NCBI GenBank assembly: GCA_041666205.1
Contig: JBAYHI010000003.1
Location: 13,215-77,214 of the forward strand
Origin: Patescibacteria group bacterium
GTDB taxonomy: Bacteria > Patescibacteriota > Patescibacteriia > UBA9934
DNA length: 64,000 bases
Direction of reading: 5' to 3'
The notes beneath the pieces were generated by a model. That model did not search any database, was not told the DNA's origin, and saw only the letters and a program-made list of their open reading frames with translations. Below are positions 36,216 to 59,256 of the stretch, one piece after another. Position numbers and translations under genes: made by a program. Numbering within the stretch: the first letter of the stretch is position 1; each line of letters begins with the position of its first letter.

Positions 36216-36222
36216 ACAGGAT

Positions 36223-36459: not shown

Positions 36460-36465
36460 ATCCCC

Positions 36466-37149: not shown

Positions 37150-38066
37150 GCCTCTATCTTTCTACGATGCGTGTTTTTCGATTCACCTTCCAGAATATCT
37201 TCCGAAATTTCTGGCTCTCGTTTGTGTCCATGACGGTTTTTGTGCTCACGCTCCTTACGGTGAACTGTGTCATCATCATGAACGTGCTAGCAAGCGCTAC
37301 GCTCGAAAGCGTTGAACGCAAAGTTGAAGTCACCATTTATTTCAATGCCGATGCTACGGAAGATTTGGTGAAGGGCGCACAAGGGTATTTGCTGGGCTTG
37401 CCGCAGGTGCGTGATGTTTCGTATATTTCCGACGCCGATGCGCTCGATGCATTTATGCGAGCAAATGCCAATGATCCATTGGTGCTTGAATCGCTTGAAG
37501 AACTCGATCGCAATCCGTTTGGTCATTCTTTGGTGGTGTCTGCACATTCCTCTGACGATTTTCCATTTATTCTTGAAGCGATTGAAACCCCTGAGTTCTC
37601 CCCATTCATCAAAGAAAAAGATACAGCCGACTATGATCGGATCATTGAGGGCATTCAAAATTTGAGCACCAAAGTCCGTTGGGGCGGCATTGCCTTGGCA
37701 GGATTTTTCGCGCTCGTTGCCATGCTCATTATTTTCAATACGATTCGCGTTGCCATTTATGTGCATCGTGAAGAAATCGGCATTATGAAGCTTGTGGGTG
37801 CAAACGATTGGTTTGTGCGCGGTCCGTTTATTTTAGAATCTCTCATTTACAGCGCAGTGGCAGCTCTCGTAATGCTTGGGTTGATTGCCTTGGTGCTTGG
37901 CGCCATGCAACCATGGATTTTGCGTTTCTTTGGCGACATTGATACGAGCCTTTCGGCGTATTATTGGAAAAACGGACTCTGGATTTTTGGTGGGCAGTGG
38001 ATCGCGCTCTCGGTCCTCAGCCTCGCAACCACCTTTATTGCCATGCGACGCTACCTTCGGGTATAG
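37146..38066 (+). CDS. ftsX: Cell division permease FtsX
   Basis: One N-terminal TM, periplasmic domain, three C-terminal TM helices; FtsX-like. Confidence 0.85.
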   Translation: MSLYLSTMRVFRFTFQNIFRNFWLSFVSMTVFVLTLLTVNCVIIMNVLASATLESVERKVEVTIYFNADATEDLVKGAQGYLLGLPQVRDVSYISDADALDAFMRANANDPLVLESLEELDRNPFGHSLVVSAHSSDDFPFILEAIETPEFSPFIKEKDTADYDRIIEGIQNLSTKVRWGGIALAGFFALVAMLIIFNTIRVAIYVHREEIGIMKLVGANDWFVRGPFILESLIYSAVAALVMLGLIALVLGAMQPWILRFFGDIDTSLSAYYWKNGLWIFGGQWIALSVLSLATTFIAMRRYLRV

Positions 38067-38091
38067 TCTGTCTTCAATTGATTTTGATCCT

Positions 38092-39576
38092 ATGCCTCAA
38101 ATCGGACAATACGGCAAACATCGGTTCTGGGAAATCATTCCCGGACTTTTGATATGGACCACGTTTTTCTTGGCAATTTTTTGTTCGTTTTTTGTGCCAA
38201 TCGCTGCGGTCATCTTCATTCTGGTGTTTGATTTGTATTGGACCATGCGTGTAATTTATTTTATCGTGCATGTCTTTGCGTCCTATAAAGAATATCGTCG
38301 AGTCCTCCGGACAAATTGGCAAGAAGAGGTGAAAGAAATTCCAACTTGGGAGCGCATCTATCATTTGGTGATGCTCCCAACGTATAAAGAAGATATTTCG
38401 ATTTTGCGGCATTCCTTGAATGCGTTAGTGGCGAGCAATTATCGGCATGATCGATTTTTTGTCGTGCTTGGTGGGGAAGAAGGGGACTTGGAGAATTTCA
38501 TGAAGTGTAAAGAAATTCTTGAAAAAGAATTTGCAGGGAAATTTTCAGAGCTTATGTTTACCGTACACCCGCGTGGATTGGGTGACGAAATTCCGGGAAA
38601 AGGATCGAATTTGCACTGGATGGCGACCCAGGTTCAGAAGCGCATTGATAAGCTGGGAATTCCCTACGAAGATATTGTGGTCTCAGCGTTTGATGTGGAT
38701 ACGATTGCGCACCCACAGTATTTTGCGCGTCTTTCATGGCTGTATCTTACGGTTCCCAATGCCATGCATTCGTCGTATCAACCGCTCAATCTTTTTTCAA
38801 ATAATATTTGGTATGCCACGGCACCGGTGCGCGTTTCCGCGTTTGGAACCACATTTTGGCTTCTCACGGATTTGGTGCGCCCGGAACGCTTGTGGACATT
38901 TTCCTCACATTCCATGCCATGGAAAATGCTCGTGGACGTGGGATTTTGGGAAACGAATATGGTTTCAGAGGATTCACGCATCTTTATGCAGGGCTTCATT
39001 CGTTACAATGGCGATTACCGCGTGACATCGATGTTTTTGCCCGTGCATATGGATGCGGTTGAGGGCGATGGGTATTGGGATAGTTTGAAAGCACTTTATA
39101 AGCAACAGCGACGTTGGGCGTGGGGCGTGGAGCATTTTCCCTATATGCTCGAGAAGTTCCGCGGAAATAAACTGATCCCACGACATCTCAAATGGAAATT
39201 CATTTTCAATCACATGGAAGGGATGTATACGTGGGCCACGGCTCCGCTTCTCATTTTTATTCTCGGGTATTTGCCGTTTTATGTGCATAGCGGTTCGGGT
39301 GCCACCGCGCTTTTCACAAATTCGCCGTTTACGTTGGAGCTCATGATGCAGGTTGCAACCGTTGGCGTATTCGTTTCAGGATTTTTTAGTTTCCTCTTCT
39401 TGCCATCTCGTCCGCAAGATATTCGCCCGTGGACCTGGCTTATTATGGTCCTCCAGTGGGTGATGCTCCCGGTCACATTCATCCTTTTTGGGGCATTTCC
39501 CGCAATCGATGCGCAAACCCGCATGATGCTTGGCAAATATCTGGGGTTCAATGTCACCAAAAAAATCGCGAAATAA
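38092..39576 (+). CDS. Processive GT2 glycosyltransferase (cellulose/chitin-synthase-like), integral membrane
   Basis: DxD 'SAFDVDT', 'VSEDSRIF' (ED) and 'YKQQRRWAWG' (QxxRW). Multiple TM helices at both ends. ATG at 38092 after the ftsX stop. Confidence 0.75.
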   Translation: MPQIGQYGKHRFWEIIPGLLIWTTFFLAIFCSFFVPIAAVIFILVFDLYWTMRVIYFIVHVFASYKEYRRVLRTNWQEEVKEIPTWERIYHLVMLPTYKEDISILRHSLNALVASNYRHDRFFVVLGGEEGDLENFMKCKEILEKEFAGKFSELMFTVHPRGLGDEIPGKGSNLHWMATQVQKRIDKLGIPYEDIVVSAFDVDTIAHPQYFARLSWLYLTVPNAMHSSYQPLNLFSNNIWYATAPVRVSAFGTTFWLLTDLVRPERLWTFSSHSMPWKMLVDVGFWETNMVSEDSRIFMQGFIRYNGDYRVTSMFLPVHMDAVEGDGYWDSLKALYKQQRRWAWGVEHFPYMLEKFRGNKLIPRHLKWKFIFNHMEGMYTWATAPLLIFILGYLPFYVHSGSGATALFTNSPFTLELMMQVATVGVFVSGFFSFLFLPSRPQDIRPWTWLIMVLQWVMLPVTFILFGAFPAIDAQTRMMLGKYLGFNVTKKIAK

Positions 39577-39614
39577 TTTTTGACCGCAATATCCCTTAGG
39601 GGTAAGCTCTGCCT

Positions 39615-40655
39615 ATGAAGGTTTATTGCCATCTCTTGACGTGGAATGATCACCGGTATTTGCCGGAGTTATTTGCGTCTTTTGATGCGCAAACGTATCG
39701 TGATTTTTCGGTTCGTGTGCTCGATAATGGGAGTAATGATAAGACCGTGGAATACCTTCAAACGCACGTTCCGCAAACGCTTGTGGGGCATAATGTCCGA
39801 AATCTCGGATTTGCCGAAGGTCATAATCAGCTTGTGCGGTTTACGCTTGAACACGAAATTGGTTCAGAGATCGATCCATGTATTTTGATCATGAACTCTG
39901 ACATGATCTTGCACAAAGATGCCATAAAAAATATGGTTGAAGCGCTCGATGCACATCCAGAATGGAGCGCGGTTCAACCAAAAGTTTATCGCGCGTTCGG
40001 CGAACATACAGGCGATGAGTCGCTCAAGGAAACCGTTCTTTCGGATATTTTAGATACGACTGGTCTTCGCGTGCAGAAGGGCTGGCGCATGACTGATCGG
40101 GGTGCTGGCGAAATGGATAGCGGGCAATACGATTCTCACATTGAACTATTCGGGCCCGCAGGCGCAATTTTCATGATTCGCCTTTCTGCGCTCAAGGAAT
40201 TATTTGTGAATGCGGAATTATTTGATCGTGAATTTTTTGCGTATCGAGAAGATTGCGATTTGGCTTGGCGTATGGCAGGCAAACGTCTGAAAACCGGTTT
40301 TGTGCCAAGTGCCACGCTTCATCACTATCGAGGGATGTATGGCGCAGAGCGCTTGTCGTTTTGGAAGCGTTTGCGCAATCGCCAAGGGCAACGTCCATTT
40401 TTTGCAGCACTTTCCACACGAAATCAACTCTTTCTGCTCCTCAAGAACTTATCGTTTGGAGATTTGTGTTTGGCACTACCATGGATTGTATGGAACGAAG
40501 GCATTCGCGTTGGCTATGGATTTCTCTTTGAACCAGAAACGCGACGATGTCTTTTGGGCATGTGGAAGGCGGTGGGGTCTATGATGGCAAAACGAAAAAC
40601 GATCCTTGCAACACGTATTGCCACCGGAGGGGAATTACGATCTTATGTCGTGTGA
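39615..40655 (+). CDS. Glycosyltransferase family 2
   Basis: 'SVRVLDNGSNDKT' and 'FAYREDCDLAWR' are GT2_A motifs. Confidence 0.8.
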   Translation: MKVYCHLLTWNDHRYLPELFASFDAQTYRDFSVRVLDNGSNDKTVEYLQTHVPQTLVGHNVRNLGFAEGHNQLVRFTLEHEIGSEIDPCILIMNSDMILHKDAIKNMVEALDAHPEWSAVQPKVYRAFGEHTGDESLKETVLSDILDTTGLRVQKGWRMTDRGAGEMDSGQYDSHIELFGPAGAIFMIRLSALKELFVNAELFDREFFAYREDCDLAWRMAGKRLKTGFVPSATLHHYRGMYGAERLSFWKRLRNRQGQRPFFAALSTRNQLFLLLKNLSFGDLCLALPWIVWNEGIRVGYGFLFEPETRRCLLGMWKAVGSMMAKRKTILATRIATGGELRSYVV

Positions 40656-41514
40656 TGTTTCTATTTTAATTGTCCAAACCTTCGAGGTCCGAAAGGTGCG
40701 TCAAACCATTCGGAATATTTATCGTGCTGCGCCACAGGTTTCGTTTGAGATTATCGTCATCGATAATAATCCGGCTGCGGGGATGCATGCGATTCTTGAA
40801 AAAGAATTTCCACATGTGCGCTATATTGCGCTCGATCGCAATAAGGGATTCGGCGGAGGAATGAACGAGGGGATTCGAATTGCCAATGGTCGATACATTT
40901 TGGTGTTCAACCCCGATATTGTTGTGGAAGCGCAATCTTTGGAAACGCTCACCCGTTTTATGGATGCACACCCAGATGTAGGTGTTGTGGGACCAAAACT
41001 TGTGAATCCCAATGGGAGCTTGCAGTTTTCTTGCTATCGATTGCCTCCACTGCTTTGGCCAGTGTATCGACGGACGCCGTTGGGAAAAACTGCGGTTGGC
41101 AAGCAGGTGATTGAAGAATATCTCATGACAGCTAACCCACATGCGGAAACGCAAGACGTGGATGCACTCATTGGCGCTGCGCTTTTTTGTCGACGCACAG
41201 ATTTGCAGGCAATCGGCTTGTTCGACGAGCGCTTTTTCATGTATTATGAGGACAATGATTTGTGCCGGCGGTTCTGGGAACGTGGCAAGCGCGTGGTGTA
41301 TTTACCGTCCGCATCCATGATCCATTATCATCGTCGCGCATCAGCAGATGGATCGCTATTGCAGCAATGTTTTTCGCGCTTCACCTGGATTCAGATTGCA
41401 AGTTTCGTGCGGTATATGCAAAAATACTTCCGCGCGCCAAACCCCCGACTTACGTATTTCGCATTTCATGGAGGAACCCATCAACCCACCAATGCCCCCT
41501 CAGAACGATCCTGA
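40645..41514 (+). CDS. Glycosyltransferase family 2
   Basis: 'EIIVIDNNPAAG', 'FNPDIVV' and 'FMYYEDNDLCRR'. Overlaps the upstream gene by 11 nt. Confidence 0.8.
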   Translation: MSCDVSILIVQTFEVRKVRQTIRNIYRAAPQVSFEIIVIDNNPAAGMHAILEKEFPHVRYIALDRNKGFGGGMNEGIRIANGRYILVFNPDIVVEAQSLETLTRFMDAHPDVGVVGPKLVNPNGSLQFSCYRLPPLLWPVYRRTPLGKTAVGKQVIEEYLMTANPHAETQDVDALIGAALFCRRTDLQAIGLFDERFFMYYEDNDLCRRFWERGKRVVYLPSASMIHYHRRASADGSLLQQCFSRFTWIQIASFVRYMQKYFRAPNPRLTYFAFHGGTHQPTNAPSERS

Positions 41515-43744
41515 TTTTCCCGATAAGTTTCAGGCGATTTTTGGTGTTCCAAAAACGTCTCCGTCCGCACCTGCATCGCCGCCTGTTTATACCGATCGAC
41601 TTCAAGAAGCACTCACGCAGACATTCCCGGAAGATACGCAACCGGTCATTGTTCCCGTTGAACCCTCTCGAGCGGTGGCGGAAGAAATTCCTCCGGTGGT
41701 GTCGGGTGATTTTTTGATTACTCCGCCCGAAGTACCGGGCGTTTTTGCGCCTCCGTTTCAAACCGAGAGCGCGCCCATTTTTGGCATTGAGCATACCCTG
41801 CACGGCGAAGATGAAATATTCGCACCCGCGCCGCTGCCACGACGAAAAACGCATTGGCTGCGGAAATTGGCGTTTGCCTGTTTTATTGCGTTTTTGGGAA
41901 TGAATGTAGCTGGGGTGGCCCTATTGGGAAGTGGGTTTTATGCGGCCAAGCAAGATGTTGACCGCATGTTTGAGTCGGTGAGCGCTTTGCAAATTGACGA
42001 TGCAGTTGAGGATCTTGCGGCAGTACGCGATGATTTTGCCCGTGCACGCAATGGCGCATATCTTTTGCAATGGGCGCGCCCAATCCCTTGGGTGGGTGAT
42101 CAAATCGAGGGCGCTGGTACGCTCCTTGTTGTTGCCGTGCAAACGCTCGATGTGCTCGAGCAAGCCGGCACCTTAGCCCAAGACCTCTATCACATCGTGA
42201 CGGACGCAGAAATTATTGCCGACGATGGCACCATTGTGACCGACATTACGTTTGAGGATATTCCAGATCGCACAAAAGAAGAGTTATTTCGAACACTTGC
42301 GTTGGCATCGCCTGATTTGTACGAACTGCGATCCAAAGTCCATTTAGCGCAAACGCGCATGACGTCGCTTGATCGGCTTTCTGTGCATCCACTTCTTGCA
42401 AGCGGATCAGAAGAATTGAATTCGATTTTGGTGCAGTTGTCGCAAGGCATTGATTTTTTGGTGCCATTTGCTTCCACAGTTGGGGAATTGGCAGGCGTCG
42501 GAGAAGATCGCCAGTGGCTCGTTTTATTCCTCAACAATACGGAGCTTCGTCCTGGCGGAGGTTTTATTGGCGTCTATGGGCTCCTCACGATGCGCGATGG
42601 GTCAATCGTGAATATGGTGACCGATGATAGTTACGCCATCGACAAACTGGTAGAGGGCAATCCTGCGTACTCGGTAACGCCACCAAAACCATTTCAGGAA
42701 TACATGATTTTGAAAAATTGGTACTTCCGCGACAGTAATTGGTCGCCGGATTTTCCGTCCTCATCTGAAAATGTGGTTCGCATGATGCAAAATGAGTTTA
42801 AGGTTGCAGGCCAACCATCTCCGGCAATCGACGGCGTGATTGGATTTACTCCGGATTTGGCAGAAGATATGCTTGGGATTATTGGCCCTGTGACAGTGGA
42901 TGGGTTTACATTCACGCACGACAATGTAACCGCCCAGCTTGAGGAATTGGTGGAATTTTATTATGCGGGGATTGGGGTGCCAAAAGAAGAGCGAAAGGAA
43001 ATCGTTGGGGATTTAACAGATGCAGTTTTGGCAAAGGTATTGGCGTCAGACTTGGACGTCTGGCAAGAAATACTTGTGATGATTGAAACAAAATTCCGTG
43101 AAAAGCACATTGCGCTTTATTCATTCGATGAGAAAACTCAAACGGCGTTTGATGATTTTGGTTGGGCAGGCTCTGTGGATTCAGGGGTTGGGGACGACAA
43201 ACTAATGCTTGTAGACGCAAATATTGCGGCCTTAAAAACCGATTTAGTGGTTGATCGAAAAATCGATTACGCCATCACAAAAGAAGGAAGTGATTATGAA
43301 GGTCATGCGACGGTTACGTATACCAATACCGGAACCTATACAAAAACCACGGGGATGTATCGCACGTTTATGCGTCTTTATGTTCCAAAAGGAAGCGAAT
43401 TTTTATCCTACGATGGCGATGTCTTTGGGATGGAAATTGAAGAAGACCTTGGGCTGTTAAGTATTGGCGGATATATTGAGGTAAAACCCGGGCAAACCGC
43501 TTCCGTCACTTACCATTATCGTTTGCCAGAATCTGTGAACGAAGCGGTGCAAAACGGCGTCTATCAATTAGCAGTTTGGAAACAAATGGGATCAAAAAAT
43601 CACGCGTTGACGCTTGACCTTGATTTTGGTAAGAACATACGTACAGCTCTGCCTGCAGAAGAGAAAGAAAACTGGGGAAATACCCAGTATGAAATCACTA
43701 CAACCATCCCGGAAAATCTTCTGTTCACAGTAGAGTTCAATTAA
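41468..43744 (+). CDS. DUF4012-domain protein with N-terminal Pro-rich region and TM anchor (cell-envelope glycan-associated)
   Basis: 'LFLNNTELRPGGGFIGVYGLLTMRDG' is the DUF4012 hallmark. Start uncertain (41468 or 41489). Confidence 0.65.
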   Translation: MEEPINPPMPPQNDPDFPDKFQAIFGVPKTSPSAPASPPVYTDRLQEALTQTFPEDTQPVIVPVEPSRAVAEEIPPVVSGDFLITPPEVPGVFAPPFQTESAPIFGIEHTLHGEDEIFAPAPLPRRKTHWLRKLAFACFIAFLGMNVAGVALLGSGFYAAKQDVDRMFESVSALQIDDAVEDLAAVRDDFARARNGAYLLQWARPIPWVGDQIEGAGTLLVVAVQTLDVLEQAGTLAQDLYHIVTDAEIIADDGTIVTDITFEDIPDRTKEELFRTLALASPDLYELRSKVHLAQTRMTSLDRLSVHPLLASGSEELNSILVQLSQGIDFLVPFASTVGELAGVGEDRQWLVLFLNNTELRPGGGFIGVYGLLTMRDGSIVNMVTDDSYAIDKLVEGNPAYSVTPPKPFQEYMILKNWYFRDSNWSPDFPSSSENVVRMMQNEFKVAGQPSPAIDGVIGFTPDLAEDMLGIIGPVTVDGFTFTHDNVTAQLEELVEFYYAGIGVPKEERKEIVGDLTDAVLAKVLASDLDVWQEILVMIETKFREKHIALYSFDEKTQTAFDDFGWAGSVDSGVGDDKLMLVDANIAALKTDLVVDRKIDYAITKEGSDYEGHATVTYTNTGTYTKTTGMYRTFMRLYVPKGSEFLSYDGDVFGMEIEEDLGLLSIGGYIEVKPGQTASVTYHYRLPESVNEAVQNGVYQLAVWKQMGSKNHALTLDLDFGKNIRTALPAEEKENWGNTQYEITTTIPENLLFTVEFN

Positions 43745-43753
43745 ACTGGCCTC

Positions 43754-44758
43754 ATGTTTTCAAAAAAGATTGGAATCGATCTTGGCACCACCACGGTGCT
43801 TGTGTATTTGCCAAAGCGTGGGATTATCATCAACGAGCCATCGGTGGTTGCGGTTTCGCGTTTGGATAAAAAAGTGCTTGCGGTAGGGAAAGAGGCAAAA
43901 GACATGCTTGGCCGTACGCCAGATTCCATCATTGCTCGCCGGCCTCTCAAAGATGGCGTGATTGCTGACTATCGCACCACCGAAGCCATGCTTCGCTATT
44001 TCATCAATAAAGCCCTTGGTGGCATGCGCATTTTTCGCCCAGAAGTGATGGTTGCCGTTCCTGGCGGGATTACCTCAACAGAACGACGCGCCGTGATTGA
44101 CGCTACGCTTTCTGCTGGTGCTAAAGCCGCCTACATCATCAAACAGCCAATTGTTGCCGCAATCGGTGCAAATATTCCAATCGGAAGCCCATCGGGCCAT
44201 ATGATTGTGGAAATTGGTGGGGGCACAACTGAGATGGCTGTTATTTCGCTTGGCGGCATTGTGACCTCGGATTCTGTGCGTATTGGTGGCGTGAAATTTG
44301 ATCAAGCTATCATGGAGCATATTCGAAAGACGTACAATTTGGCTATTGGCGAGCGCACGGCTGAAGAAATCAAGATTCGCGTTGGGTCTGCGATGTATTT
44401 GGAGGATAAGCTCACTACGGAAATCAAGGGGCGCGATATGATTACAGGCTTGCCAAAGATCGTTGAGGTGAGTTCTGACGATGTGACTGAGGCCATTAAG
44501 ACACTGTTGGAAGGAATACTCACCACAATCAAAGAAGTCTTATTTAAAACTCCACCGGAGCTCTCGGCTGATGTCATGGACAAGGGAATTGTGATTTCCG
44601 GCGGAAGCGCCCAGCTTCGAAATTTGGACCGATTGATTGCCGAGTCAACGGGCGTTGCCACCTATTGCGCCGACGATCCACAGATGTGCGTGGCTCGTGG
44701 CACGGGCATGGCAATTGAAAACCTTGATGCTTATAAACGAAGCGTATTCACTCAATAA
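43754..44758 (+). CDS. mreB: Rod shape-determining protein MreB
   Basis: 'IGIDLGTTTVLVY', 'DGVIADY' and 'VEIGGGTTEMAVIS' are actin-fold motifs. Confidence 0.93.
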   Translation: MFSKKIGIDLGTTTVLVYLPKRGIIINEPSVVAVSRLDKKVLAVGKEAKDMLGRTPDSIIARRPLKDGVIADYRTTEAMLRYFINKALGGMRIFRPEVMVAVPGGITSTERRAVIDATLSAGAKAAYIIKQPIVAAIGANIPIGSPSGHMIVEIGGGTTEMAVISLGGIVTSDSVRIGGVKFDQAIMEHIRKTYNLAIGERTAEEIKIRVGSAMYLEDKLTTEIKGRDMITGLPKIVEVSSDDVTEAIKTLLEGILTTIKEVLFKTPPELSADVMDKGIVISGGSAQLRNLDRLIAESTGVATYCADDPQMCVARGTGMAIENLDAYKRSVFTQ

Positions 44759-44759
44759 T

Positions 44760-45884
44760 ATGAAAACATACGGGATCGATGTGAATGCTTTGACCCGGGC
44801 GCGTAAAACTGGAACAGAGCGCTATGTTTTCGAGCTTTTAAAAGAAATGATAAAAACACCGCTTCAAAATGAAGAGCGGGTTGTTTTGTATTCAAGCGCG
44901 CTAATCCCAGAGCTTGGCACGCTCCCAAATGGATGGATCCTCAAGATTCTCGATTGGAAGCTCAAAAAAGCGTGGACTCACGCTCGACTTAGCTGGGAAC
45001 TTCTTACACGAACACCAGATGTATTTTTTAGTCCCGCGCATGAGATTCCGCTTTTTCACCGACGAACAAAATTTGTATCCACCGTGCATGATGTTGCATT
45101 TCGGATTGTGCCTGAGGTTTATTCCAAGAAGAGCGTGAAGCGGCAGGAATGGGCGGTTGCTCGTGCACTCAAGCTCGACCAGAAAATCATCACGATTTCT
45201 GAAACGTCCAAAAACGATTTGGTGAATCTGTATCATGTGGCACCAGAGCGTATTGCCATCACGCCTCTGGCCGTGCATCCGGAAGCATTTGCAACGGTCG
45301 AGGCCGATAAACAAAACGTTTTGGATAAATATCGCCTCAATGCCGGTCTTTATTTTGTAACGGTTGGGCGCGTTGAGAAAAAGAAAAATATTCCGTTTCT
45401 TTTGAGCACATTTGAAGCGTTTAAGCGTGATCGTGGCATTGGCGACCCATATCAACTGGTGCTTGCCGGCACATTTGGGGAAGATGCAAAGGAAATTCAA
45501 GCACAAATCGAAAAATTAGTATGCAAAGATGTTGTGCGCGTTTTGGGATATGTTCCCGACGCAGAATTGCCAGGGCTTCTGGCTGGTGCCGTCGCTTACG
45601 TTTTTCCAACACGTTACGAAGGATTTGGCATTCCAGCACTCGAGGCAATGGCTTCGCGCATTCCACTTATCGCGTCCGATATTCCGGCGCTTCGTGAAGT
45701 TGCGGGGGATGCAGCCCTTTTTGCAGGAGTTGAGGATGCTGGGGCGTGGATTGAAGCGATGCAAAAAATTGTCGATAATGAATCGCTTCGCGCGGATTTG
45801 GTACTAAAGGGTGCACAGCGTTTGCATGACTTTTCTTGGGTAGAGACGGCAAAAAAGACGTGGGAGGTGTTGCGAAGTGTGTAG
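44760..45884 (+). CDS. Glycosyltransferase family 4
   Basis: C-terminal 'EGFGIPALEAMASRIPLIASD' E-x7-E motif. ATG at 44760, 2 nt after the mreB stop. Confidence 0.8.
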   Translation: MKTYGIDVNALTRARKTGTERYVFELLKEMIKTPLQNEERVVLYSSALIPELGTLPNGWILKILDWKLKKAWTHARLSWELLTRTPDVFFSPAHEIPLFHRRTKFVSTVHDVAFRIVPEVYSKKSVKRQEWAVARALKLDQKIITISETSKNDLVNLYHVAPERIAITPLAVHPEAFATVEADKQNVLDKYRLNAGLYFVTVGRVEKKKNIPFLLSTFEAFKRDRGIGDPYQLVLAGTFGEDAKEIQAQIEKLVCKDVVRVLGYVPDAELPGLLAGAVAYVFPTRYEGFGIPALEAMASRIPLIASDIPALREVAGDAALFAGVEDAGAWIEAMQKIVDNESLRADLVLKGAQRLHDFSWVETAKKTWEVLRSV

Positions 45885-46656
45885 TATGCGCGATCTCGTT
45901 CACGATTTAGTTCGACTTGGATTTTCTGAAAAAGAAGCCGAAGGCTATGTGGCGCTTTTATCTTTAGGGAAAGCACCGGTGCAGGTGATTGCGCAGAAAA
46001 CCGGAATCAATCGGGCGAGTGTTTACCATGTGCTCGATGCCTTGGTGAAAAAAGGATTAGCAATCGTGTCAGTCGAGCATGGAGAAAAAATGTATTCAGC
46101 CGAACCGCCGGCTCGTTTGATTACGCATTTGAGCATTCAAATGCAAGAGCTCGAAGAACGTCGACGCCTGGCAGACGGGCTCATGATGCGTTTGCAGGTT
46201 TTTTACAATACAAGCGGAACCAAGCCAAAGATTTCGTATATTGAGTCGGTGGATGGACTTCGAATGCTTCAGCGGGAATATGAGGAAATGGGGGAGGACA
46301 TGATTCAAATTGTTGGCTACGATGCATTTTTGGCGCTTCGCGATACGTCAGCATCTAAGATTCACCAAAAAGAATTGGCGCGTCAGCATCGACGTGTACG
46401 ATCAATTATTGTGACAGACCGCAAGGTTGAGTTCCCAGATTTTCCGGAAATGGAAATTGTGGTGATTCCAAAAGGCGTTGTTGAAATTGATGGGGAAATG
46501 ACGGTTTGTGGCGACCGGCTTGTGATGTTTTCGTATGCGTCCGGGATTATCGCCGTTGAAATCAAATCAAAAACAATTGCAAATACAGCAAAAGCAACGC
46601 TTGAGCTCGCTTGGAAAGAGGCAAAACGCTTCGATTCTGTACGGGCAGGTCTGTGA
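45877..46656 (+). CDS. TrmB-family transcriptional regulator (HTH + sugar-binding-like domain)
   Basis: 'LGFSEKEAEGYVALLSLGKAPVQVIAQKTGINRASVYHVLDALVKKGL' is a TrmB HTH. GTG start at 45877 with GGAGGT 9 nt upstream; alternative ATG at 45886. The 3' end is overlapped by a REP hairpin. Confidence 0.7.
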   Translation: MCSMRDLVHDLVRLGFSEKEAEGYVALLSLGKAPVQVIAQKTGINRASVYHVLDALVKKGLAIVSVEHGEKMYSAEPPARLITHLSIQMQELEERRRLADGLMMRLQVFYNTSGTKPKISYIESVDGLRMLQREYEEMGEDMIQIVGYDAFLALRDTSASKIHQKELARQHRRVRSIIVTDRKVEFPDFPEMEIVVIPKGVVEIDGEMTVCGDRLVMFSYASGIIAVEIKSKTIANTAKATLELAWKEAKRFDSVRAGL

Positions 46657-46694
46657 CCTGCCCTTTTCGTATGGGCTTGACATGCCAAGCCCAT
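46641..46694 (+). repeat. REP-like hairpin pair: 'gtacgggcaggtctgtgacctgccc' plus 'atgggcttgacatgccaagcccat'
   Basis: The 5' flank 'tcgattctgta' is identical to the flank of the REP copy inside the RAYT gene (26781..26791). The stem gggcaggtc/gacctgccc recurs at 50561. Confidence 0.7.
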
Positions 46695-46795
46695 ACGGCT
46701 CGACACTGAAACAAAAATCCGCCCCCACGATGTGAAATCATGAATGCGGATTTTCCCCCGAACCCTGCGCGGTACGCATGGTTCGGAGACGAGAA

Positions 46796-47587
46796 CTAGA
46801 GGTCGAAGTGCGAGCGCAGTGGCGGTTCTCCTTCTTCGAGCTCCTCGGTTCTTTCATCAAACGCGCAACATCCATCGGGGCGTGGTCTTGTGCTTGTTGG
46901 GATTTCCGAGGGTGGAGTTTTCGGAGGCACGAATGTAGGAAAAGCCTGATGAATCACGGCAAGCGGGATCCCAGCGAGGTGCGCCCGCGTAGCTGCACCC
47001 GAGGCATCCACGATTCCGGCCGCAGATGGCTGCGTGGCACATACCTGCAGGAGAAAACGCCCTTGTTCGTATTCTTTCGCGTAGAGATAGAGTCGGACAC
47101 GTGTGACACTCGGGCCGAATGTGAGTGCCTCGTTACCTTCGCGGTTGTTGTATTGGATCGAGACACCGCCGGTACTTCCAGTCTTGATACCTTTTTTGGC
47201 ATCTACGGCATCCATCTCCGTGGCTGCACGTTTGAAGGCGTTGAAGACCTCGGTCATGAACCCAATGGAGACAGTTCTTCCGTCAATCCATCTAGGACCC
47301 GCAGGACCTGGTCGGGCTCCGAAGCACATGCAGGCCTTGGCAAATGCCAGTAGGGCCTTGTCACGTTCCTCGAAGAAGTGTCGTACCGTACGCCCTGGAT
47401 CTTGGTAAACCCGCGCGATTCTTCTCACCTTCCCTCCAATGGGCAATATTGTCTGGATCTCAAGATTGTTTTCGAAGTTCCAAGACTGTCGAGAATACTC
47501 AAATATTTGAAAAATTGCAAGAGTTAGCCAAACAAAAAATCCGCGTTCACGATTTTCATCATAAATGCGGATTCTTCCTCGAGACAT
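46796..47587 (-). CDS. Hypothetical protein in the high-GC island (263 aa)
   Basis: ATG at 47587 preceded by GAGGT with 9-nt spacing. Resemblance to a tyrosine-recombinase catalytic-domain layout (R...K...R...H, but no C-terminal Tyr) is weak and speculative. The opposite-strand ORF has antisense-like composition. Confidence 0.45.
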   Translation of the reverse strand: MSRGRIRIYDENRERGFFVWLTLAIFQIFEYSRQSWNFENNLEIQTILPIGGKVRRIARVYQDPGRTVRHFFEERDKALLAFAKACMCFGARPGPAGPRWIDGRTVSIGFMTEVFNAFKRAATEMDAVDAKKGIKTGSTGGVSIQYNNREGNEALTFGPSVTRVRLYLYAKEYEQGRFLLQVCATQPSAAGIVDASGAATRAHLAGIPLAVIHQAFPTFVPPKTPPSEIPTSTRPRPDGCCAFDERTEELEEGEPPLRSHFDL

Positions 47588-47631
47588 GCAGTGCATACCT
47601 CAAGGACGTTTGGAACGGCTCGAGTCGAGCG

Positions 47632-48096
47632 CTAGTTCCAGTCCCAGCCGTGTTCTTCCTCGGTCATTTCCGAGAGCTCACTGATATGTCGGTTACAGCG
47701 ATGGCACTGACCGTCGCAGGTCGACTTATCGCGGTCGGACGGAACTACGAACACGAGCGTTCCGCGCAGGAACTGCTGGAAAAGACCCTTGAGGAACTGG
47801 TCGTTGTCCAGCTCGCAGGTTTCTCCGCGGTCCTTGGACTCTCTCGCGAACTTCAGCACGTCGCTGATCGAGATGTTGAGTTCCCTCATCGTGAAGACGA
47901 AGGCGTGGAACGTCTCGATGTTCATGATGGTGGACCCCAGCGAGGCCAGGGCGTCCAGCAGGTTGAACAAGCTTTGGAGCTGTTCGTCACTCGCCTCCGC
48001 GACGAAGTTGAGGCTCGTGGGTGGCTCTCGGAAGAACACTCTCATGACGCGTGCTGTATTCTGCTCAAGCTTCTTCCGCTTCTTCGGATCGAACAT
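47632..48096 (-). CDS. Hypothetical protein in the high-GC island (154 aa) with C-terminal CxxC...HxC cluster
   Basis: ATG at 48096 preceded by AAGGAGGG with 7-nt spacing. The longer ORF start at 48153 is TTG. Confidence 0.5.
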   Translation of the reverse strand: MFDPKKRKKLEQNTARVMRVFFREPPTSLNFVAEASDEQLQSLFNLLDALASLGSTIMNIETFHAFVFTMRELNISISDVLKFARESKDRGETCELDNDQFLKGLFQQFLRGTLVFVVPSDRDKSTCDGQCHRCNRHISELSEMTEEEHGWDWN

Positions 48097-49291
48097 AACC
48101 GCGCCCTCCTTGGCGTTTCTAGTTGGAGCTCTTAGTACCTCGAATTGCTTCAAGGTTCCAGTTGAGCCCCCTAGAACACATCAGGCGATGCGGGCTAGGG
48201 AGAAGCTCGGAGTTGGCACTTTCGCAGCTCAGGCGAGTCTATTTTGTGGAAACGAGCGACCAACCTCGGTTTTGACCTTACGTGGACGCTTCGTGCATCG
48301 GTCAGTTGCACAAAGCGTTTCTCTCATCGTCACCTCGTGGTGAATGGTGAAGTAGATGCGAGATGGGCAAAGCACGTTGCCCGACAGAGTGTGAGCCCGC
48401 CCAGTTCTGGAGAGGCGCGGCTCATTGTTTACGATGGCGTGCTCCATCGGCCGGTTTTCTTGTCTTCCGCCCCGGCGAGCGGTTCTATATGAGGCTCAAT
48501 TCTTGATACCCCCTCCGGCGTATATGCCGGTTCGAAGTTCTCCGTCAGTTGTGGCTTCAGGCGATTTTGAATCGATGTGCCCGATGCCGTGAGTGAACGG
48601 AGAACGGTCTTGAGGACTAGCGACGAGTGTCGTGAGTCCTGTGGGACCCCCGAGACATGTTTTCACGCATGCTCAGGGAAGGGGTGAGGATCTGCTTCCT
48701 CAGGGCTCACCACTGCTTGCGGGCCAGGCAAGACGTACGGACAGGTGACTTCCGGATGCTTTGGTTTCGAGCCTAACGACGGTCCAGCGTATTGTGCTGA
48801 AGAATTCTCCATATCGGGATCGCTTCGTACTTGAGTTTCACCTCGTTCCTGACTCCCCGACACAAGAATTCGCATCTCCGCCGATTATTCTAACCCTCTC
48901 GAAAGGGCTTTTTAGTATTCCCAGGCGAATAATGTGACCTTACGGCCCCCGGGACACCAATTTCAACAGACCATTTCTTCCTTAATTTTCGAGCATCTCA
49001 CGTGTGCTCGGTATCGTTTTCCGAGTCGACTCGGAAAAATGAACGATTCTATTTTTTTGATGTACACCTCCCGGTTCGTTGTTTCGGTTGCGTGCGTAGA
49101 GCTATTTACGCAAACCACGACGGGTACATTGTACCTCCGTGTAGCACGCGTCTTCCGCGTGTGCTACGTGTTTTGGTTCTACAGTTTTTTGCCGCTGTAG
49201 TCCGGCAAAAGGTTCTTAAGGTCTCGCGGTGAAGCGGGACCCAGTCGAACCCCCAACTCGCGGTTTCATGCGCGGTTAGGGAAGATAGGGG

Positions 49292-49621
49292 CTAGTAGTT
49301 GTGGCCGAACGTTCGGCATCGGCGCATGGCGCCTTTGGCCCCGCGCCGGCGCGGGGAGAACCCGCACGCGTGGACGCGTTCGTCCGTCTCCACCGGCACC
49401 ATGAGCGCGGTGCCACCGTCGTCGGTCGAGACAAACTCGCCGACCACGGTCCCGGGGTTGGGAATTCGCGTGGCCCGCAGGCCGGGACGGAACTTCCCGT
49501 CGCCCTCCGGGATCATTGGCGTGAAATCCGACGCCGAGGTTTCCCCCGGCGCTTCGTACGTGGCGTCGACGGGGTTGCCGTCGGCGTCCGTGGCCTCGAT
49601 TCGAACGGTCTTCGTGGGCAC
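49292..49621 (-). CDS. Hypothetical protein (109 aa, GC about 68%)
   Basis: GTG start preceded by AAGGAGGGG with 5-nt spacing. Both strands carry long ORFs here because of the high GC, so the call is tentative. Confidence 0.35.
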   Translation of the reverse strand: MPTKTVRIEATDADGNPVDATYEAPGETSASDFTPMIPEGDGKFRPGLRATRIPNPGTVVGEFVSTDDGGTALMVPVETDERVHACGFSPRRRGAKGAMRRCRTFGHNY

Positions 49622-49938
49622 GGGCCCCTCCTTCGATGGTTAAGTTATGCGCACAAGCCTGGAGGTGAGTGCTACGCCAAAGCGTAGCGGCTCAGCACTC
49701 GTCTGAGCTATAACAGTGATTGCCGAAGCAATATGCTATACGGCACCCGGGTGTGTGCAGAAAGCAAGCCGGAGCCTGGTTCAAGCACTTGGGTACCAAG
49801 TCATTGTGTTATCGTCAGACGGAAATCCGACGACCAAAAACCCTACCTCCTCTCCCCCAGAGTTATGCGCACAAGTTGTAAAGATCACATCGAAGTTCAC
49901 AAATTTTTTGAACTTTGACGTGACCGCGAGATTTTTGA

Positions 49939-50376
49939 TTACTCGCTGGTAAGTTGGAATCCATTGGCGCGAAATCGTTCGCGTATGGCTTCCAGTTGCT
50001 CCGGGTATTTCTCCTTCATTTCCCGAAGCAGACGCTGTGCCGCCTCGTTGTAGGTTTCCATCCGAACCGTGTCTGGCGGTTCGAGGTGGATCCACAAGGG
50101 GACGGAGTCGAGATAAAAAGCGATTTCCGATAGCAGATAAGCTCTGCTGTCATATCGGGCACGAATACTCATCTCCTTGATTGAAATGCCCTTAGCTTTT
50201 TCTGGAAGCTGAATGGCAACCAATATGAAGATGATTCCCCATGCTCGACGTTCGGACATTGAAGTTTGTTTGAAGATCTCGACAAGGGTATCGATCATGA
50301 GCTTCTGAACCACGGATGCCTGAGGTGACACGAGTTTTTCAAGCTTTGTGCCCTGCATCATAATGAAATGAAGCAT
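49939..50376 (-). CDS. Hypothetical protein (146 aa)
   Basis: First ATG of a longer ORF (49939..50766). The upstream extension runs through a REP hairpin cluster and starts at TTG, so it is trimmed. Confidence 0.45.
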   Translation of the reverse strand: MLHFIMMQGTKLEKLVSPQASVVQKLMIDTLVEIFKQTSMSERRAWGIIFILVAIQLPEKAKGISIKEMSIRARYDSRAYLLSEIAFYLDSVPLWIHLEPPDTVRMETYNEAAQRLLREMKEKYPEQLEAIRERFRANGFQLTSE

Positions 50377-50560
50377 TCTAGCACGAAGATTAAAATCGCG
50401 TCTTTTCTGGAACCTCTCGAGGTCCCGTTGTATACGTTTTTTTATATCCAAGACGGTTTTTTCCTTTGAAAAAGAACCGGGAATAATAGCAGAAAAATAG
50501 CGATTTGTCAAGCCATACCAAGGCAATTTTTGGCGAAAATTGCGTGAATTGTGACGAATT

Positions 50561-50703
50561 GGGCAGGTCGCAGACCTGCCCGTACGGAATCGAATCCGCG
50601 TAGGGGCGGCCCAATGTGGCCGCCCCTTGGTAATATGATTCGAATCGAGGATGAAGCAATCAAATCGAGAATGACGGGCAGACGCTTGGGTCTGCCCGTA
50701 CAG
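50561..50703. repeat. BIME-like cluster of three GC-rich hairpins
   Basis: The three hairpins are 'gggcaggtcgcagacctgcccgtacgg', 'gtaggggcggcccaatgtggccgcccc' and 'gacgggcagacgcttgggtctgcccgtacag'. The middle hairpin is identical over 26 nt to the two copies inside the RAYT gene. It is flanked by inverted 'gaatcgaatcc / gattcgaatcg'. Confidence 0.75.
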
Positions 50704-50921
50704 ATTTGGATCTGCTGGAGTGTGGCCACGCAATTCCTGTCCTTCCGCCGGATTCCTCTTTGACAATGCTCGAGCCGGCGAATCGAAAAAAACAGGCTAC
50801 CGAACACAGCCCGACCGGAAAAACATGCCTGCCCTGGACGGTTTGGTTCTTCAGATGTTTTTCCGGGCTGACCAATTGCGAGGTCAGGATGGGCTATAAG
50901 AAAACAGACCCTTTCTTTTCC

Positions 50922-50986
50922 CCCCTCTTTTCTTTGGGTCCAGCAAAGAAAAGAGGGGCCAGGGTTAAAGGGGCAGGATGCCCCTT
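50922..50986. repeat. Two strong hairpins upstream of holB
   Basis: 14-bp perfect stem 'cccctcttttcttt-N9-aaagaaaagagggg' and 'aggggca-gga-tgcccct'. Followed by TATAAT (50993..50998) 9 nt before the holB ATG. Confidence 0.55.
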
Positions 50987-51007
50987 ATATGCTATAATCA
51001 CCTTGTT

Positions 51008-51904
51008 ATGACAGGGGATTTTAATGGCATTATTGGCCACCAGGCGCAAATTGAGTATTTGCGCAAAATTATTGCTGGCGAAAATGTGGCTCATGCCTAT
51101 TTATTCTCTGGCGCAGAGCGACTGGGGAAACGCACCATTGCTCGTGAATTTGCATCCATCATGCTCGGGATTGAGGAAAACGCCCTTGATACGCACCCCA
51201 ATTTCTATTTCGTGGATTATCCACTCGACGAAAAGACAGGCGAACCAAAACCCCACATCGATATCGATTCAATCCGTGATGCGCGAGAACGCATGCAACT
51301 TTCAACGTTTGACGGTGGGCGAAAAATCCTTCTCATTGATCACGCGGACAGCATGACGCTTGGCGCGCAGAATGCACTCTTGAAAACGCTCGAAGAACCA
51401 AGTGGCGATGCACTCATCATTTTGGTTGCCTGCATGCCCAAAATTCTTTTGCCAACGATTGTGTCTCGATCTGTTCACATTCGATTTGCTCCAGTTGCGT
51501 CGAAAATTATTTTGCAGTCGCTTGGCGACAAAGCACTTGCACTCAAAGAACTCGTCGAATCATTTGCCTATGGTCGTCCGGGAATTGCGCTGGAATTTTT
51601 AAACGATGAGCGTCGAGAGGAGATCGAATTGCAACGCAAGGATGCAAAAGCATTTTTTCGAGCGCCCCTTGCAAAACGATTTGGCATCATTGCAAGTCTT
51701 ACAAAGAAAAAAGAACGCAATGCCGTGCAGGAAGCGCTAAAAACCTGGCGCATGCAACTTCATGAAGATTTGGCTGAATCTCTTGGCACGCCAAGTGCAC
51801 TTCGCGTCGCAATTGCACTCAATGCGCTCGAAGAAGCCGATGAGTCGATTCGTCGCAACGGCAATGTCCCCCTTGCTTTAGAATATTTCGCAATTCATTT
51901 ATGA
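51008..51904 (+). CDS. holB: DNA polymerase III subunit delta-prime
   Basis: 'IIGHQAQIEYLRKII..NVAHAYLFSGAERLGKRTIAREFA', 'ILLIDHADSMTLGAQNALLKTLEEP' and 'SRS' sensor. AAA+ clamp-loader motifs lacking a full P-loop Lys-Thr, typical of delta-prime. Confidence 0.8.
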   Translation: MTGDFNGIIGHQAQIEYLRKIIAGENVAHAYLFSGAERLGKRTIAREFASIMLGIEENALDTHPNFYFVDYPLDEKTGEPKPHIDIDSIRDARERMQLSTFDGGRKILLIDHADSMTLGAQNALLKTLEEPSGDALIILVACMPKILLPTIVSRSVHIRFAPVASKIILQSLGDKALALKELVESFAYGRPGIALEFLNDERREEIELQRKDAKAFFRAPLAKRFGIIASLTKKKERNAVQEALKTWRMQLHEDLAESLGTPSALRVAIALNALEEADESIRRNGNVPLALEYFAIHL

Positions 51905-57832: not shown

Positions 57833-57871
57833 TACCCTCCGTAGCTCTGTTGTGGCAGAGCGAAGGACGGG

Positions 57872-58027
57872 TTACTTTGTTTCTTTGTGACCGGTATGGG
57901 CTTTGCATTGCTTGCAGAACTTTTGGAGTTCCAAGCGAGTTTTGAGGGTTTTGACGTTTTTGTGCACGCGGTAATTCACGGTTTTGCACGTCGTACACTC
58001 CAATTTGATCATGTTGTCTTGTGACAT
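57872..58027 (-). CDS. rpmG: 50S ribosomal protein L33
   Basis: 'MSQDNMIKLECTTCKTVNYRVHKNVKTLKTRLELQKFCKQCKAHTGHKETK' is an L33 zinc-ribbon (CxxC...CxxC). Internal ATG chosen over the 96-aa ORF. Confidence 0.85.
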   Translation of the reverse strand: MSQDNMIKLECTTCKTVNYRVHKNVKTLKTRLELQKFCKQCKAHTGHKETK

Positions 58028-58188
58028 AGGGATTGTTTGAATGGGGGAAGTGTACGTAATCGCGGCAGTTTTGTCAATTCCCGCAGGGGCTTGGATTGAC
58101 AAATCGCCATTTTTTTGATAGTTTTTTCGGTTCCTCGAGTGAGGACAACAGGTCATTCCCACTAGATTTTTCTCCGCGGAGGTTTGAA

Positions 58189-59256
58189 ATGCAGTCCTAC
58201 ATCCAGTGCGTGCCCGGGAACCACAACCGGTGCGAGGCGCAGGGGCACGGGAAGCGTCTTATCCGGGATGGAACGTGTTCGATTGGTCGGGCCTGGGCGT
58301 TGCGCGCCCTGCCCTGCGCCGGGTGTGAGATGCTGGTGCCCGCGCACCTCGGAAAGCGCGTGAATCCGGCGTTCGTGGTTGCGATCGCGGGGGTCGGGAA
58401 CATCAAGGTCGCGCCCGGAGCATTCATGCTCTACGCGGCCGTCACCGTCGACCCCGAGGCGCGCTTGTGCGACGAGTGCGCGGAAAAGCTCGCGAGCGCT
58501 GTGCAGAACGGCTCGGGGAAGCCCGGGTTCGTTCATCTCGGTTCGCAGGTCGTCCCGCTTCTCATGAGCCCCACGACTGCGCAGACCGAACTTGCGCGCT
58601 GTGAGGAGGCGCGGGCCCTGGAGCGCGCCGAGCGCGTCCAGAAGATCGTGGCGCTCGTCGAGCGAATTCGCGCGGGATCTCAGGTCGCATTCGCGCGCAA
58701 GATGCGCGAGGGCGGTGAGCTTTGGACCGAATGCACGACGCACCGCAACACGCCCGACGGCACGTGCTTTGACGATGAATCCGCTCACTACGGCTACGCC
58801 AACTGGCACGAGATGCCGTCGATTCGCGCCGACAACAAGGTCTTCGGATTCTGCCCGACTTGCGCCAAGGAAGCGAAGGGCGCCGGCGTGGAGTTCAACG
58901 GCATGATGGCCGCGCTCGTCGCGCAGGTGCAGAATTTGCCCTACACGAATCCGAGCGATCGGGGGCGGAGTGGCAACACTGCGCTTGGTCACATCACGAC
59001 CGTGGACGAAGCTTCGCGTGAGATTGGGGCGCGTCTCACGCTTGCTCAGAAGTCCGATGGTCAGCGGGACTGGGTCGCACGGAATTTCGAGTTCGGTGCG
59101 ACCGGGATGGGGCGGAAGCATCGCGTGACGCGCAAGCCCGTACAGCTCTCGCCCGAAGAAATCGAGCGTCGTCGGGCCGAGCGCGCGAAGCGCAAGGCCG
59201 ATGAGAAGAGACAGCAGAAGAAGGGGGGAGGCGGCAACAAGAAGAAGGGCCGCTAG
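58189..59256 (+). CDS. Hypothetical high-GC (about 66%) protein with multiple CxxC zinc-ribbon-like motifs and a Lys/Arg-rich C-terminal tail
   Basis: ATG at 58189 preceded by GGAGGT with 5-nt spacing. Composition differs sharply from flanking genes. The opposite-strand 369-aa ORF looks antisense (R/L/A-rich). Confidence 0.55.
   Translation: MQSYIQCVPGNHNRCEAQGHGKRLIRDGTCSIGRAWALRALPCAGCEMLVPAHLGKRVNPAFVVAIAGVGNIKVAPGAFMLYAAVTVDPEARLCDECAEKLASAVQNGSGKPGFVHLGSQVVPLLMSPTTAQTELARCEEARALERAERVQKIVALVERIRAGSQVAFARKMREGGELWTECTTHRNTPDGTCFDDESAHYGYANWHEMPSIRADNKVFGFCPTCAKEAKGAGVEFNGMMAALVAQVQNLPYTNPSDRGRSGNTALGHITTVDEASREIGARLTLAQKSDGQRDWVARNFEFGATGMGRKHRVTRKPVQLSPEEIERRRAERAKRKADEKRQQKKGGGGNKKKGR

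Follow-up and report, generated by a model that had tools for sequence, protein, structure and literature searches.

The present work concerns a GC-rich islet of about 3.15 kb, located at positions 46700-49850 of a 64-kb stretch of DNA (hereafter the window, to which all coordinates refer) from a Patescibacteria metagenome-assembled genome of the Candidate Phyla Radiation (GenBank contig JBAYHI010000003.1). The backbone of this host has a GC content of about 0.48 and almost all of its genes lie on the plus strand. The islet is flanked on the left by a gene encoding a TrmB-like regulator (45877-46656) and on the right by holB (50978-51904). It contains three open reading frames (ORFs) on the minus strand, called ORF1, ORF2 and ORF3 from left to right, a 1.2-kb non-coding spacer between ORF3 and ORF2, and a structured leader domain upstream of ORF3. 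NCBI lists the three proteins as WCT24_01805, WCT24_01810 and WCT24_01815 ("Patescibacteria group bacterium"). Genomic islands have already been documented in Patescibacteria (PMC12455944). A previous inspection of the DNA letters (hereafter the sequence-only reading) had proposed the region as a candidate mobile or defense island bracketed by matching hairpins.

Results

The GC content of the islet is 0.557, compared with 0.482 for the rest of the window. When calculated in 400-nt windows, GC is 0.44-0.49 left of 46600, rises to 0.55-0.58 over 46600-48800, peaks at 0.68 at 49200-49599 and falls back to 0.44-0.49 from about 49850. The individual segments differ from each other (ORF1 0.564, ORF2 0.568, spacer 0.537, ORF3 0.694, leader 0.505). 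With respect to tetranucleotide usage, the 3-kb segment 47001-50000 ranks second in the window (z=7.7), and codon usage deviates as well, GC at third codon positions (GC3) being 0.81 in ORF2 and 0.86 in ORF3 vs 0.47. The segment is thus compositionally foreign, as the sequence-only reading had it, and the rise from about 47% to about 58-68% which it placed between the two hairpins is real, but the GC-rich part stops at about 49850, short of the right hairpin. Since the DNA at 49850-50560, which holds a further gene (49939-50451) and its promoter, has a backbone-like GC of 0.47, the right hairpin is not a compositional boundary. An independent Logan assembly of SRR6484324 was found to be 100% identical over window positions 35586-50775 and thus reproduces the left junction and the entire islet, while the right junction is backed by the synteny of HolB with related genomes.

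Three plausible minus-strand genes had been proposed in this segment. To judge from their codon statistics, ORF2 and ORF3 are convincing genes with the classical signature of a GC-rich genome. ORF2 (47632-48096, minus strand, 154 aa) has GC1/2/3 values of 0.54/0.35/0.81 and a clear frame plot which ends at the start codon, and its ATG is preceded by GGAGG at a distance of 8 nt. Its product is predicted to be helical, with a C-terminal CxxxCxxC..H patch. ORF3 (49292-49621, minus strand, 109 aa, GC 0.69) has values of 0.65/0.56/0.86, a sharp frame plot stopping at its start codon, and GGAGG 5 nt before a GTG. ORF1 displays a weaker coding signal (GC1/2/3 = 0.63/0.52/0.55) and was retained in a modified form. 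The 263-aa protein annotated by NCBI starts at ATG 47587, in a spacer of 42% GC, and crosses a hairpin followed by a U-tract (47535-47576) just after the ORF2 stop codon. Because this terminator lies within the annotated 5' end, the start of ORF1 is most likely the in-frame GTG at 47428, which coincides exactly with the point of GC rise, has GGAGG 4 nt upstream and would yield a protein of 210 aa (46796-47428, minus strand). A plus-strand ORF at 47344-48135, picked by one gene caller, was discarded as an antisense shadow of ORF2 (GC1 0.69, GC3 0.50).

No relatives of the three proteins could be found. Searches of 5.8 billion clustered proteins returned only the proteins themselves, and a full HMMER scan of 1.84 billion representatives (1.84e9) with ORF1 retrieved ORF1 itself and one spurious protein, P0004, whose weak match corresponds to a translated tandem repeat. 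None of the islet proteins matched Pfam, PHROGs, NCBIfam, PADLOC or PDB sequences, and the islet had no match in phage and plasmid DNA records (blastn and tblastn) or in IMG/VR. With PADLOC, no family was obtained at E<=1 for ORF1-3 and gene A, the neighbouring gene at 49939-50451. In agreement with the sequence-only reading, these libraries revealed no known defense, toxin or integrase motif. The weak resemblance of the 263-aa protein to a tyrosine recombinase was not borne out, as no Pfam or NCBIfam match at E<=1, no PDB sequence match and only a self match in the HMMER scan were obtained. Single-sequence AlphaFold models of ORF2 (pLDDT 41) and ORF1 (pLDDT 33) were too poor for a fold search. 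Homology and structure prediction, the routes first suggested for these proteins, thus gave negative and unusable results, respectively, and no defence, toxin, mobility or biochemical role is assignable to the three proteins.

The islet genes differ from those of the backbone in their Shine-Dalgarno (SD) sequences. When the window was scanned for GGAGG placed 3-11 nt ahead of the start codon of an ORF no shorter than 50 codons, the starts obtained were those of ORF1 (47428), ORF2 and ORF3, those of the genes in two further GC-rich islets (58189; 63152 and 63658) and that of the TrmB-like gene, plus a few sites that are internal or due to coincidence. In contrast, GGAGG preceded none of the 27 longest-ORF starts of the backbone and none of 10 independently called starts. 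The host genes thus lack an SD sequence whereas the GC-rich genes all possess one, confirming that the islet genes are SD-led in a way that the backbone genes are not. GGAGG sites are the sharpest discriminator between the two classes. In this genome, foreign genes can be recognised by the combination of GGAGG sites and high GC3, and 64 kb contain three such islets.

The locus was compared with 80 related loci, retrieved with MreB as a query (71-88% MreB identity, none from the same species). These loci share the order DUF4012-MreB-GT4-(TrmB)-gap-HolB-BNR-p53053-p53598. In many relatives, mostly more distant ones, the GT4 gene is directly followed by HolB without a TrmB-like gene. Among those possessing the TrmB-like gene, the gap to HolB measures 0.9, 2.3, 4.2 or 5.3 kb, or else HolB lies beyond 4-8 kb. 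Homologues of ORF1-3 or gene A were present in none of the 80 loci, which have conserved flanks, and blastn of the islet DNA detected no similarity. Conserved synteny of these genes, which would have spoken against an insertion, was therefore not observed. The sequence-only reading had also raised the question of whether relatives have TrmB directly followed by gene A; gene A occurs in none of them, and what follows TrmB is a gap of variable size. Queries of genome and metagenome collections with the TrmB-like protein and with gene A likewise returned no relatives.

GC-rich inserts (0.58-0.64) were observed in 5 of about 10 TrmB-to-HolB gaps, in backbones of 0.41-0.51, while such segments make up 4% of all related sequence examined. 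The insert genes are unrelated between genomes and mostly led by AGGAGG; they are either without family matches or code for Cys-rich repeat proteins of the MopE type and, in one case, for a GIY-YIG nuclease. By this comparison of sequences, the TrmB-holB interval is a recurrent insertion hot spot in this Patescibacteria clade. As the site repeatedly harbors GC-rich, SD-bearing foreign DNA, the islet of the window would therefore represent one instance of it.

The genes for the MopE-type proteins lie at 13744-16254 (plus strand) of locus L025 and at 8717-10693 (plus) and 11478-13427 (minus) of locus L031; their products are large, rich in Cys and Gly, and display metal-binding motifs of the MopE type (PF11617, E 9e-35 and 1.5e-6). 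The GIY-YIG nuclease is encoded at 10949-11371 (minus) of L031, in a GC-rich insert downstream of the TrmB-like gene. Furthermore, in six loci (L028, L060, L065, L070, L077 and L078) 1-3 kb of extra DNA were noticed to separate mreB from the GT4 glycosyltransferase gene, two genes that adjoin each other in the window, and mreB-GT4 looks like another variable interval of the same conserved block.

The islet genes are arranged with signals of their own. Downstream of ORF1 lies a 3' module of two hairpins (46700-46795, minus strand, fold z -4.9), the second of which is an intrinsic terminator (AAAAUCCGC...GCGGAUUUUUGUUU); the module contains direct repeats D1/D6. It is homologous to the 3' module of ORF2, with 75% identity in the alignment. 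The latter occupies, together with its terminator, positions 47535-47631 (fold z -7.0) of the 42% GC spacer between ORF1 and ORF2 (47429-47631, minus strand), which also carries a promoter-like site for ORF1 (47492-47465). Since each gene has a homologous terminator module and ORF1 has a promoter-like site of its own, ORF1 and ORF2 look like separate units. There is no obvious intrinsic minus-strand terminator after ORF3, the next one downstream being that of the ORF2 module, so that a single transcript may cover ORF3, the spacer and ORF2.

To the right of the islet, gene A (49939-50451, minus strand, about 170 aa, probable TTG start) has a GC of 0.472 and no SD sequence, and its membership in the islet is uncertain. 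A hairpin (49885-49923, minus strand, fold z -5.5) is located directly 3' of its stop codon, and a strong sigma-70-like promoter at 50483-50511 (minus strand; TTGACA-17-TATTAT, TG-extended) lies upstream. The 42 nt around this promoter recur at 58092-58133, before the second GC-rich gene, and a looser copy is found at 27789-27807.

Concerning the other GC-rich islets of the window, the second one (58140-59260, GC about 0.63) contains one gene of 355 aa, starting at 58189 with GGAGG 6 nt upstream and having no Pfam match. Its promoter region (58092-58133, 42 nt) is 81% identical to that of gene A. The neighbours of this islet are rpmG (L33, minus strand, about 57870-58030) on the left and the following backbone gene on the right. 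The third islet (62960-63900, GC about 0.60) holds three or more tiny ORFs with SD sequences (starts at 63152, about 63348, and 63658), all of which have a terminator-like hairpin behind them, and adjoins a cluster of hairpins of the repetitive extragenic palindromic (REP) type at 62965-63090. The looser promoter copy TTGACAAAACGACAATTTT (27789-27807) lies upstream of a 100-aa ORF (27425-27807, minus strand) without family match and with slightly raised GC, which adjoins a tRNA-Lys gene (27258-27333).

The spacer between ORF3 and ORF2 (48097-49291, minus strand) is non-coding, lacks codon periodicity and folds better than chance. In 160-nt windows of the minus strand, the mean fold z is about -2.4, with a minimum of -6.3 at 48520-48679, whereas 30 backbone windows gave -0.2±1.0; the plus strand is less structured (mean z about -1.0). 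The most stable domain corresponds to 48500-48700 of the minus strand (z -6.3). On the plus strand, a terminator-like hairpin (49138-49170) is followed by TTTTGG. The description of 48150-49290 as devoid of a convincing ORF and rich in hairpins was accurate: no periodic ORF was detected, and the hairpins that had been named exist (49017-49038 and 49186-49209). Short ORFs of the spacer show neither family match nor periodicity.

Several other interpretations of the spacer were considered. A gene recoded to read TGA as sense could be imagined, given that minus frame 1 has TGA-only stops from 48942 to ORF2; it was rejected because there is no codon periodicity there, and other frames show TGA-only runs too. 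A recently decayed, GC3-rich pseudogene is unlikely, as the frame plot shows only weak and patchy periodicity (48600-48830 and 49125-49275) and no family match was obtained; the segment 48600-48830 is the least clear in this respect. Ribosomal or other known RNAs were rejected as the source of the high GC on the basis of RNA searches. The covariance search for non-coding RNA that had been suggested for this region matched no family, since none of the Rfam 15 models reached its gathering score and those with E<=5 were chance-level miRNA and snoRNA matches.

Upstream of ORF3, a leader domain of approximately 230 nt (49643-49875, minus strand) is closed by two copies of a 15-nt repeat (49643-49657 and 49861-49875). 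The copies are exact and occur nowhere else in the window, and the enclosed segment is highly structured, as the sequence-only reading had noticed; its view of them as a mere direct repeat has to be modified, as the core UUGUGCGCAUAA is a quasi-palindrome, which enables the two copies to pair with each other. This pairing includes two G.U pairs which form in the minus-strand RNA only, the plus strand presenting A.C mismatches in their place. The minus-strand RNA of 49622-49940 folds with a z of -7.3, and in folding contexts of 319, 809 and 1561 nt, 11 pairs have a pairing probability of at least 0.95. Together with the adjoining GGGGGAGAGGAGG/CACUCACCUCC pairing, the repeats constitute a closing helix of about 25 bp which ends 11 nt before the SD sequence of ORF3 and surrounds a group of five or six hairpins, among which one has a cUUCGg tetraloop. 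From this prediction on a single sequence, a structured leader or a processed RNA is credible. An operator function of TTRTGCGCAYAA was considered and dropped, no further copies being present in the window, and a pattern search for the repeat pair in viral contigs found nothing.

We then turn to the hairpins on either side. The stem GGGCAGGTC-N3-GACCTGCCC occurs at 46643-46663 and 50561-50581, the only two matches in the window where none is expected. Both hairpins belong to a 41-nt inverted repeat (46630-46670 and 50554-50594) with 90% complementarity. They are genuine REP-type elements sharing a stem, as had been proposed. The left REP region (46630-46697, plus strand) consists of GTAC and the GGGCAGGTC/GACCTGCCC hairpin (46639-46663) followed by a second palindrome (46668-46697), and the hairpin provides the TrmB-like gene with its last nine codons and a terminator-like end. 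Rather than forming the islet edge, the right hairpin lies within a decayed copy of a REP-associated tyrosine transposase (RAYT) gene (50554-50720, minus strand). This copy was identified by BLASTP (E 3e-7) and DNA alignment with an intact gene of the RAYT/IS200-type Y1 transposase family at 26578-27099 (minus strand, 173 aa; PF01797, E 1.9e-6, 28.4 bits for a cut-off of 23). It has lost the HxH motif by deletion and holds three REP-type hairpins (50561-50585, which is the right bracketing hairpin, 50600-50627 and 50674-50701).

In the whole window, GTA[C/G]GG sites followed by a GC-rich hairpin number 13, vs 0.8 in shuffled sequences (about 16-fold), whereas REPs of this type are nearly lacking in related genomes (0.43 per 64 kb). 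Multi-copy GTAG-like palindromes and an associated Y1 transposase gene, which together characterize a REP/RAYT system, are thus both present, for the flanking hairpins only; the islet itself does not behave as a unit of the REPIN (REP doublet forming hairpins) or IS200/IS605 type, its right compositional edge lying 700 nt short of the REP. Further copies of the islet were found neither in the window nor in the related loci. Because these REPs are almost absent from relatives having GC-rich inserts at the same locus, the flanking REPs are bystanders or later colonisers, which did not carry the islet in.

The intact RAYT gene carries two inverted, in-frame copies of a REP hairpin, GTAGGGGCGGCCCAATGTGGCCGCCC (26789-26827 and 26954-26980), which encode ..GRPHWAAPT.., and the same hairpin is seen again at 50600-50627. 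The presence of REP elements within the reading frame of their own transposase gene is odd. REP-type hairpins were also observed at 15715/15741 and 21877, around a gene of 2010 aa (15832-21864) which forms the most deviant tetranucleotide block of the window (z=8.1).

The TrmB-like gene (45877-46656, plus strand), encoding a winged-helix regulator (PF01978, E 1.6e-14), is the only nearby gene of backbone GC to possess GGAGG, 9 nt before a GTG. It is confined to closer relatives, with variable DNA after it. Being SD-led and missing from more distant relatives, its sequence context suggests an older acquisition.

Discussion

Taken together, these results indicate, with a probability that we regard as moderately good, that 46700-49850 represents a mosaic of expression units, each self-contained, which was acquired horizontally. 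It would stem from the accessory or phage genes of a donor that is rich in GC and uses SD sequences; it has lodged in a hypervariable TrmB-holB interval, and the REP/RAYT debris would be independent of it. On the minus strand, the units are ORF3 with its 230-nt structured leader, the 1.2-kb structured spacer leading into ORF2, and ORF1, which has a promoter-like site to itself; the two-hairpin terminator module at the end of ORF2 is the same as that at the end of ORF1. The genes retain the signature of the donor, presumably a bacterium with a GC-rich genome, in the form of high GC3 and canonical GGAGG sites. Since there is no recombinase, tRNA or duplication at the ends, we infer an entry by DNA uptake (natural transformation) and illegitimate recombination, with no dedicated recombinase involved. 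The genome's own REP/RAYT system would have given rise to the REP hairpins and RAYT remnant seen at the edges, which would have arrived independently. Regarding expression, one long minus-strand transcript may run from ORF3 to the ORF2 terminator, with ORF1 transcribed separately. The role of the islet genes is presumably accessory and lineage-specific.

The proposal of a mobile or defense island finds no support in our data. No recombinase family match (Pfam, NCBIfam) was obtained, no transposase lies inside the islet, no tRNA gene is present within 11 kb, no direct repeat marks the compositional edges and no target duplication the ends, and neither a PADLOC match nor a tyrosine-recombinase signal was found.

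Several points weigh against the mosaic of acquired units. The argument for a foreign origin combines composition, SD usage and absence from relatives, and neither a donor nor a homologue was found. A non-coding stretch of 1.2 kb is odd cargo for a simple transfer of genes. Given its weak coding signature, ORF1 could be a non-functional reading frame. The islet genes are probably expressed, a view based on motifs, but SD-led genes may or may not be translated well in this host, the 3' end of the host 16S rRNA lying outside the window. Finally, the relatives compared all belong to other species, and the limits given here for the insertion are approximate.

Among the other explanations, the islet might be the remnant of a prophage, a satellite or an integrated plasmid, in which the three genes are surviving morons and the spacer a decayed gene. 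Promoter-gene-terminator units with a composition of their own are reminiscent of phage morons, small genes without relatives are typical for phage accessory regions, and the weak periodicity at 48600-48830 and 49125-49275 could be read as a trace of the decayed gene. However, no hallmark gene (integrase, capsid, terminase or Rep) and no PHROG match were recovered, 50,697 phage records and IMG/VR contained no match, and no att-like duplication is present at the islet ends. Moreover, phage GC is usually equal to or below that of the host, whereas the GC of the islet is far above it, and the spacer does not display the strong GC3 periodicity expected of a gene from this source that decayed recently. 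We therefore consider such a remnant unlikely.

Alternatively, the islet could be a functional module centred on RNA, with the 230-nt domain and/or the 1.2-kb spacer acting as a large and new structured RNA, be it a leader with a regulatory role, a stable RNA released by processing or an RNA that works together with the small proteins, possibly within a system of the defence or toxin-antitoxin-like type. The folding of the leader region (z -7.3 for 49622-49940), with its closing helix of about 25 bp, strand-specific G.U pairs and cUUCGg tetraloop, is in line with this possibility, and so are the domain at 48500-48700 (z -6.3) and the mean z of the spacer minus strand (about -2.4 vs -0.2). Nevertheless, GC-rich foreign DNA with terminator hairpins may reach low z values without any function, no Rfam family emerged even at E<=5, and the helices are predictions from a single sequence. 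The neighbouring proteins have no PADLOC match, and the repeat is equally explicable as an operator pair or as a duplication at the DNA level. An RNA-centred module is thus quite unlikely.

A further possibility is a composite element of 3.9 kb, delimited by the inverted REP hairpins (46639 and 50585) and moved as single-stranded DNA by the genome's RAYT transposase, in the manner of an oversized REPIN or of an IS200/IS605-type element that encodes no transposase. This would account for the 41-nt inverted repeat with 90% complementarity, for the over-representation of the REP family in a window that has a RAYT gene and a RAYT remnant at the right end, and for the REPs flanking the other deviant block at 15.7-21.9 kb. 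It is hardly compatible with a right GC edge (about 49850) lying 700 nt inside the REP, with a gene of backbone GC and its promoter in between, or with the fusion of the left REP to the end of the TrmB-like gene. In addition, GC-rich inserts occupy this locus in relatives whose genomes have almost no such REPs (0.43 per 64 kb), and the window has no second copy of the islet. Known REPINs measure tens of bases and not kilobases, and the ends of IS200/IS605 elements are not inverted repeats. REP-mediated transport of the islet is accordingly a distinctly improbable scenario.

As for an assembly chimera, in which a fragment of a GC-rich organism was misjoined at repeated hairpins, the abrupt composition changes, the repeats at both ends and the end of the Logan contig at 50775, within a REP cluster, are outweighed by the 100% identity of the left junction and whole islet in the independent assembly, by repeats that amount to only 41 nt at 90% with GC boundaries lying off the right one, by two more GC-rich SD-led islets in the same contig, and by analogous inserts at the same locus in contigs of unrelated studies with HolB coming next as synteny predicts, leaving this explanation with next to no likelihood.

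Beyond the mosaic of acquired units that we favour, one may speculate, as a long shot, that the interval downstream of TrmB is a dedicated capture site for expressed, GC-rich, SD-led DNA from bacterial partners or hosts, and that the cargo taken up in this genome comprises a large structured RNA not described before, made up of the 230-nt domain and the 1.2-kb spacer. If such a capture site existed, the inserts would record the DNA-exchange partners of these ultra-small bacteria. As Patescibacteria are thought to depend on other bacteria, such inserts could in any case hint at the identity of the donor or host once donors are sampled. Taken alone, the present locus is one further anonymous, horizontally acquired islet, and it is the hot spot together with the clean SD contrast that raises its usefulness. 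The REP/RAYT system with its in-frame hairpins and the strongly folding leader constitute secondary leads.

The locus shares features with several known systems. As in REP/RAYT systems, the flanking hairpins combine GTA[C/G]GG with a GC-rich stem, and intact as well as decayed RAYT-type genes are found in the window; unlike REPINs, the bracketing REPs are 3.9 kb apart with the islet edges located elsewhere, and in-frame REP hairpins in a RAYT gene are unusual. Integron cassette arrays come to mind because the small genes lack relatives, point in one direction and vary in composition, and because two of them are followed by 3' modules (about 90 nt) that are homologous and form imperfect palindromes. 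However, the modules of the islet are terminators made of a hairpin and a U-tract, and ORF1 has a promoter-like site. No pair of attC R''/R' cores (RYYYAAC/GTTRRRY) is visible in the islet sequence, and the genes flanking the islet, to which this part of the inspection was confined, include no intI.

Phage morons provide a parallel in the organization of the genes, each having a ribosome-binding site and a terminator, with a promoter-like site for ORF1 and a composition that differs from the surroundings and between units, although the islet lies outside any recognisable prophage and has no match to a phage protein family. With genomic islands, finally, it shares deviant GC, tetranucleotide and codon usage, lineage-specific genes and a position in a variable interval between syntenic genes. 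It departs from them by its very small size (3.2 kb), by the absence of integrase, tRNA and flanking direct repeats and by a non-coding fraction of more than one third, and its contrast with the backbone is sharpened by the SD sequences of its genes, of which the host itself makes no use.

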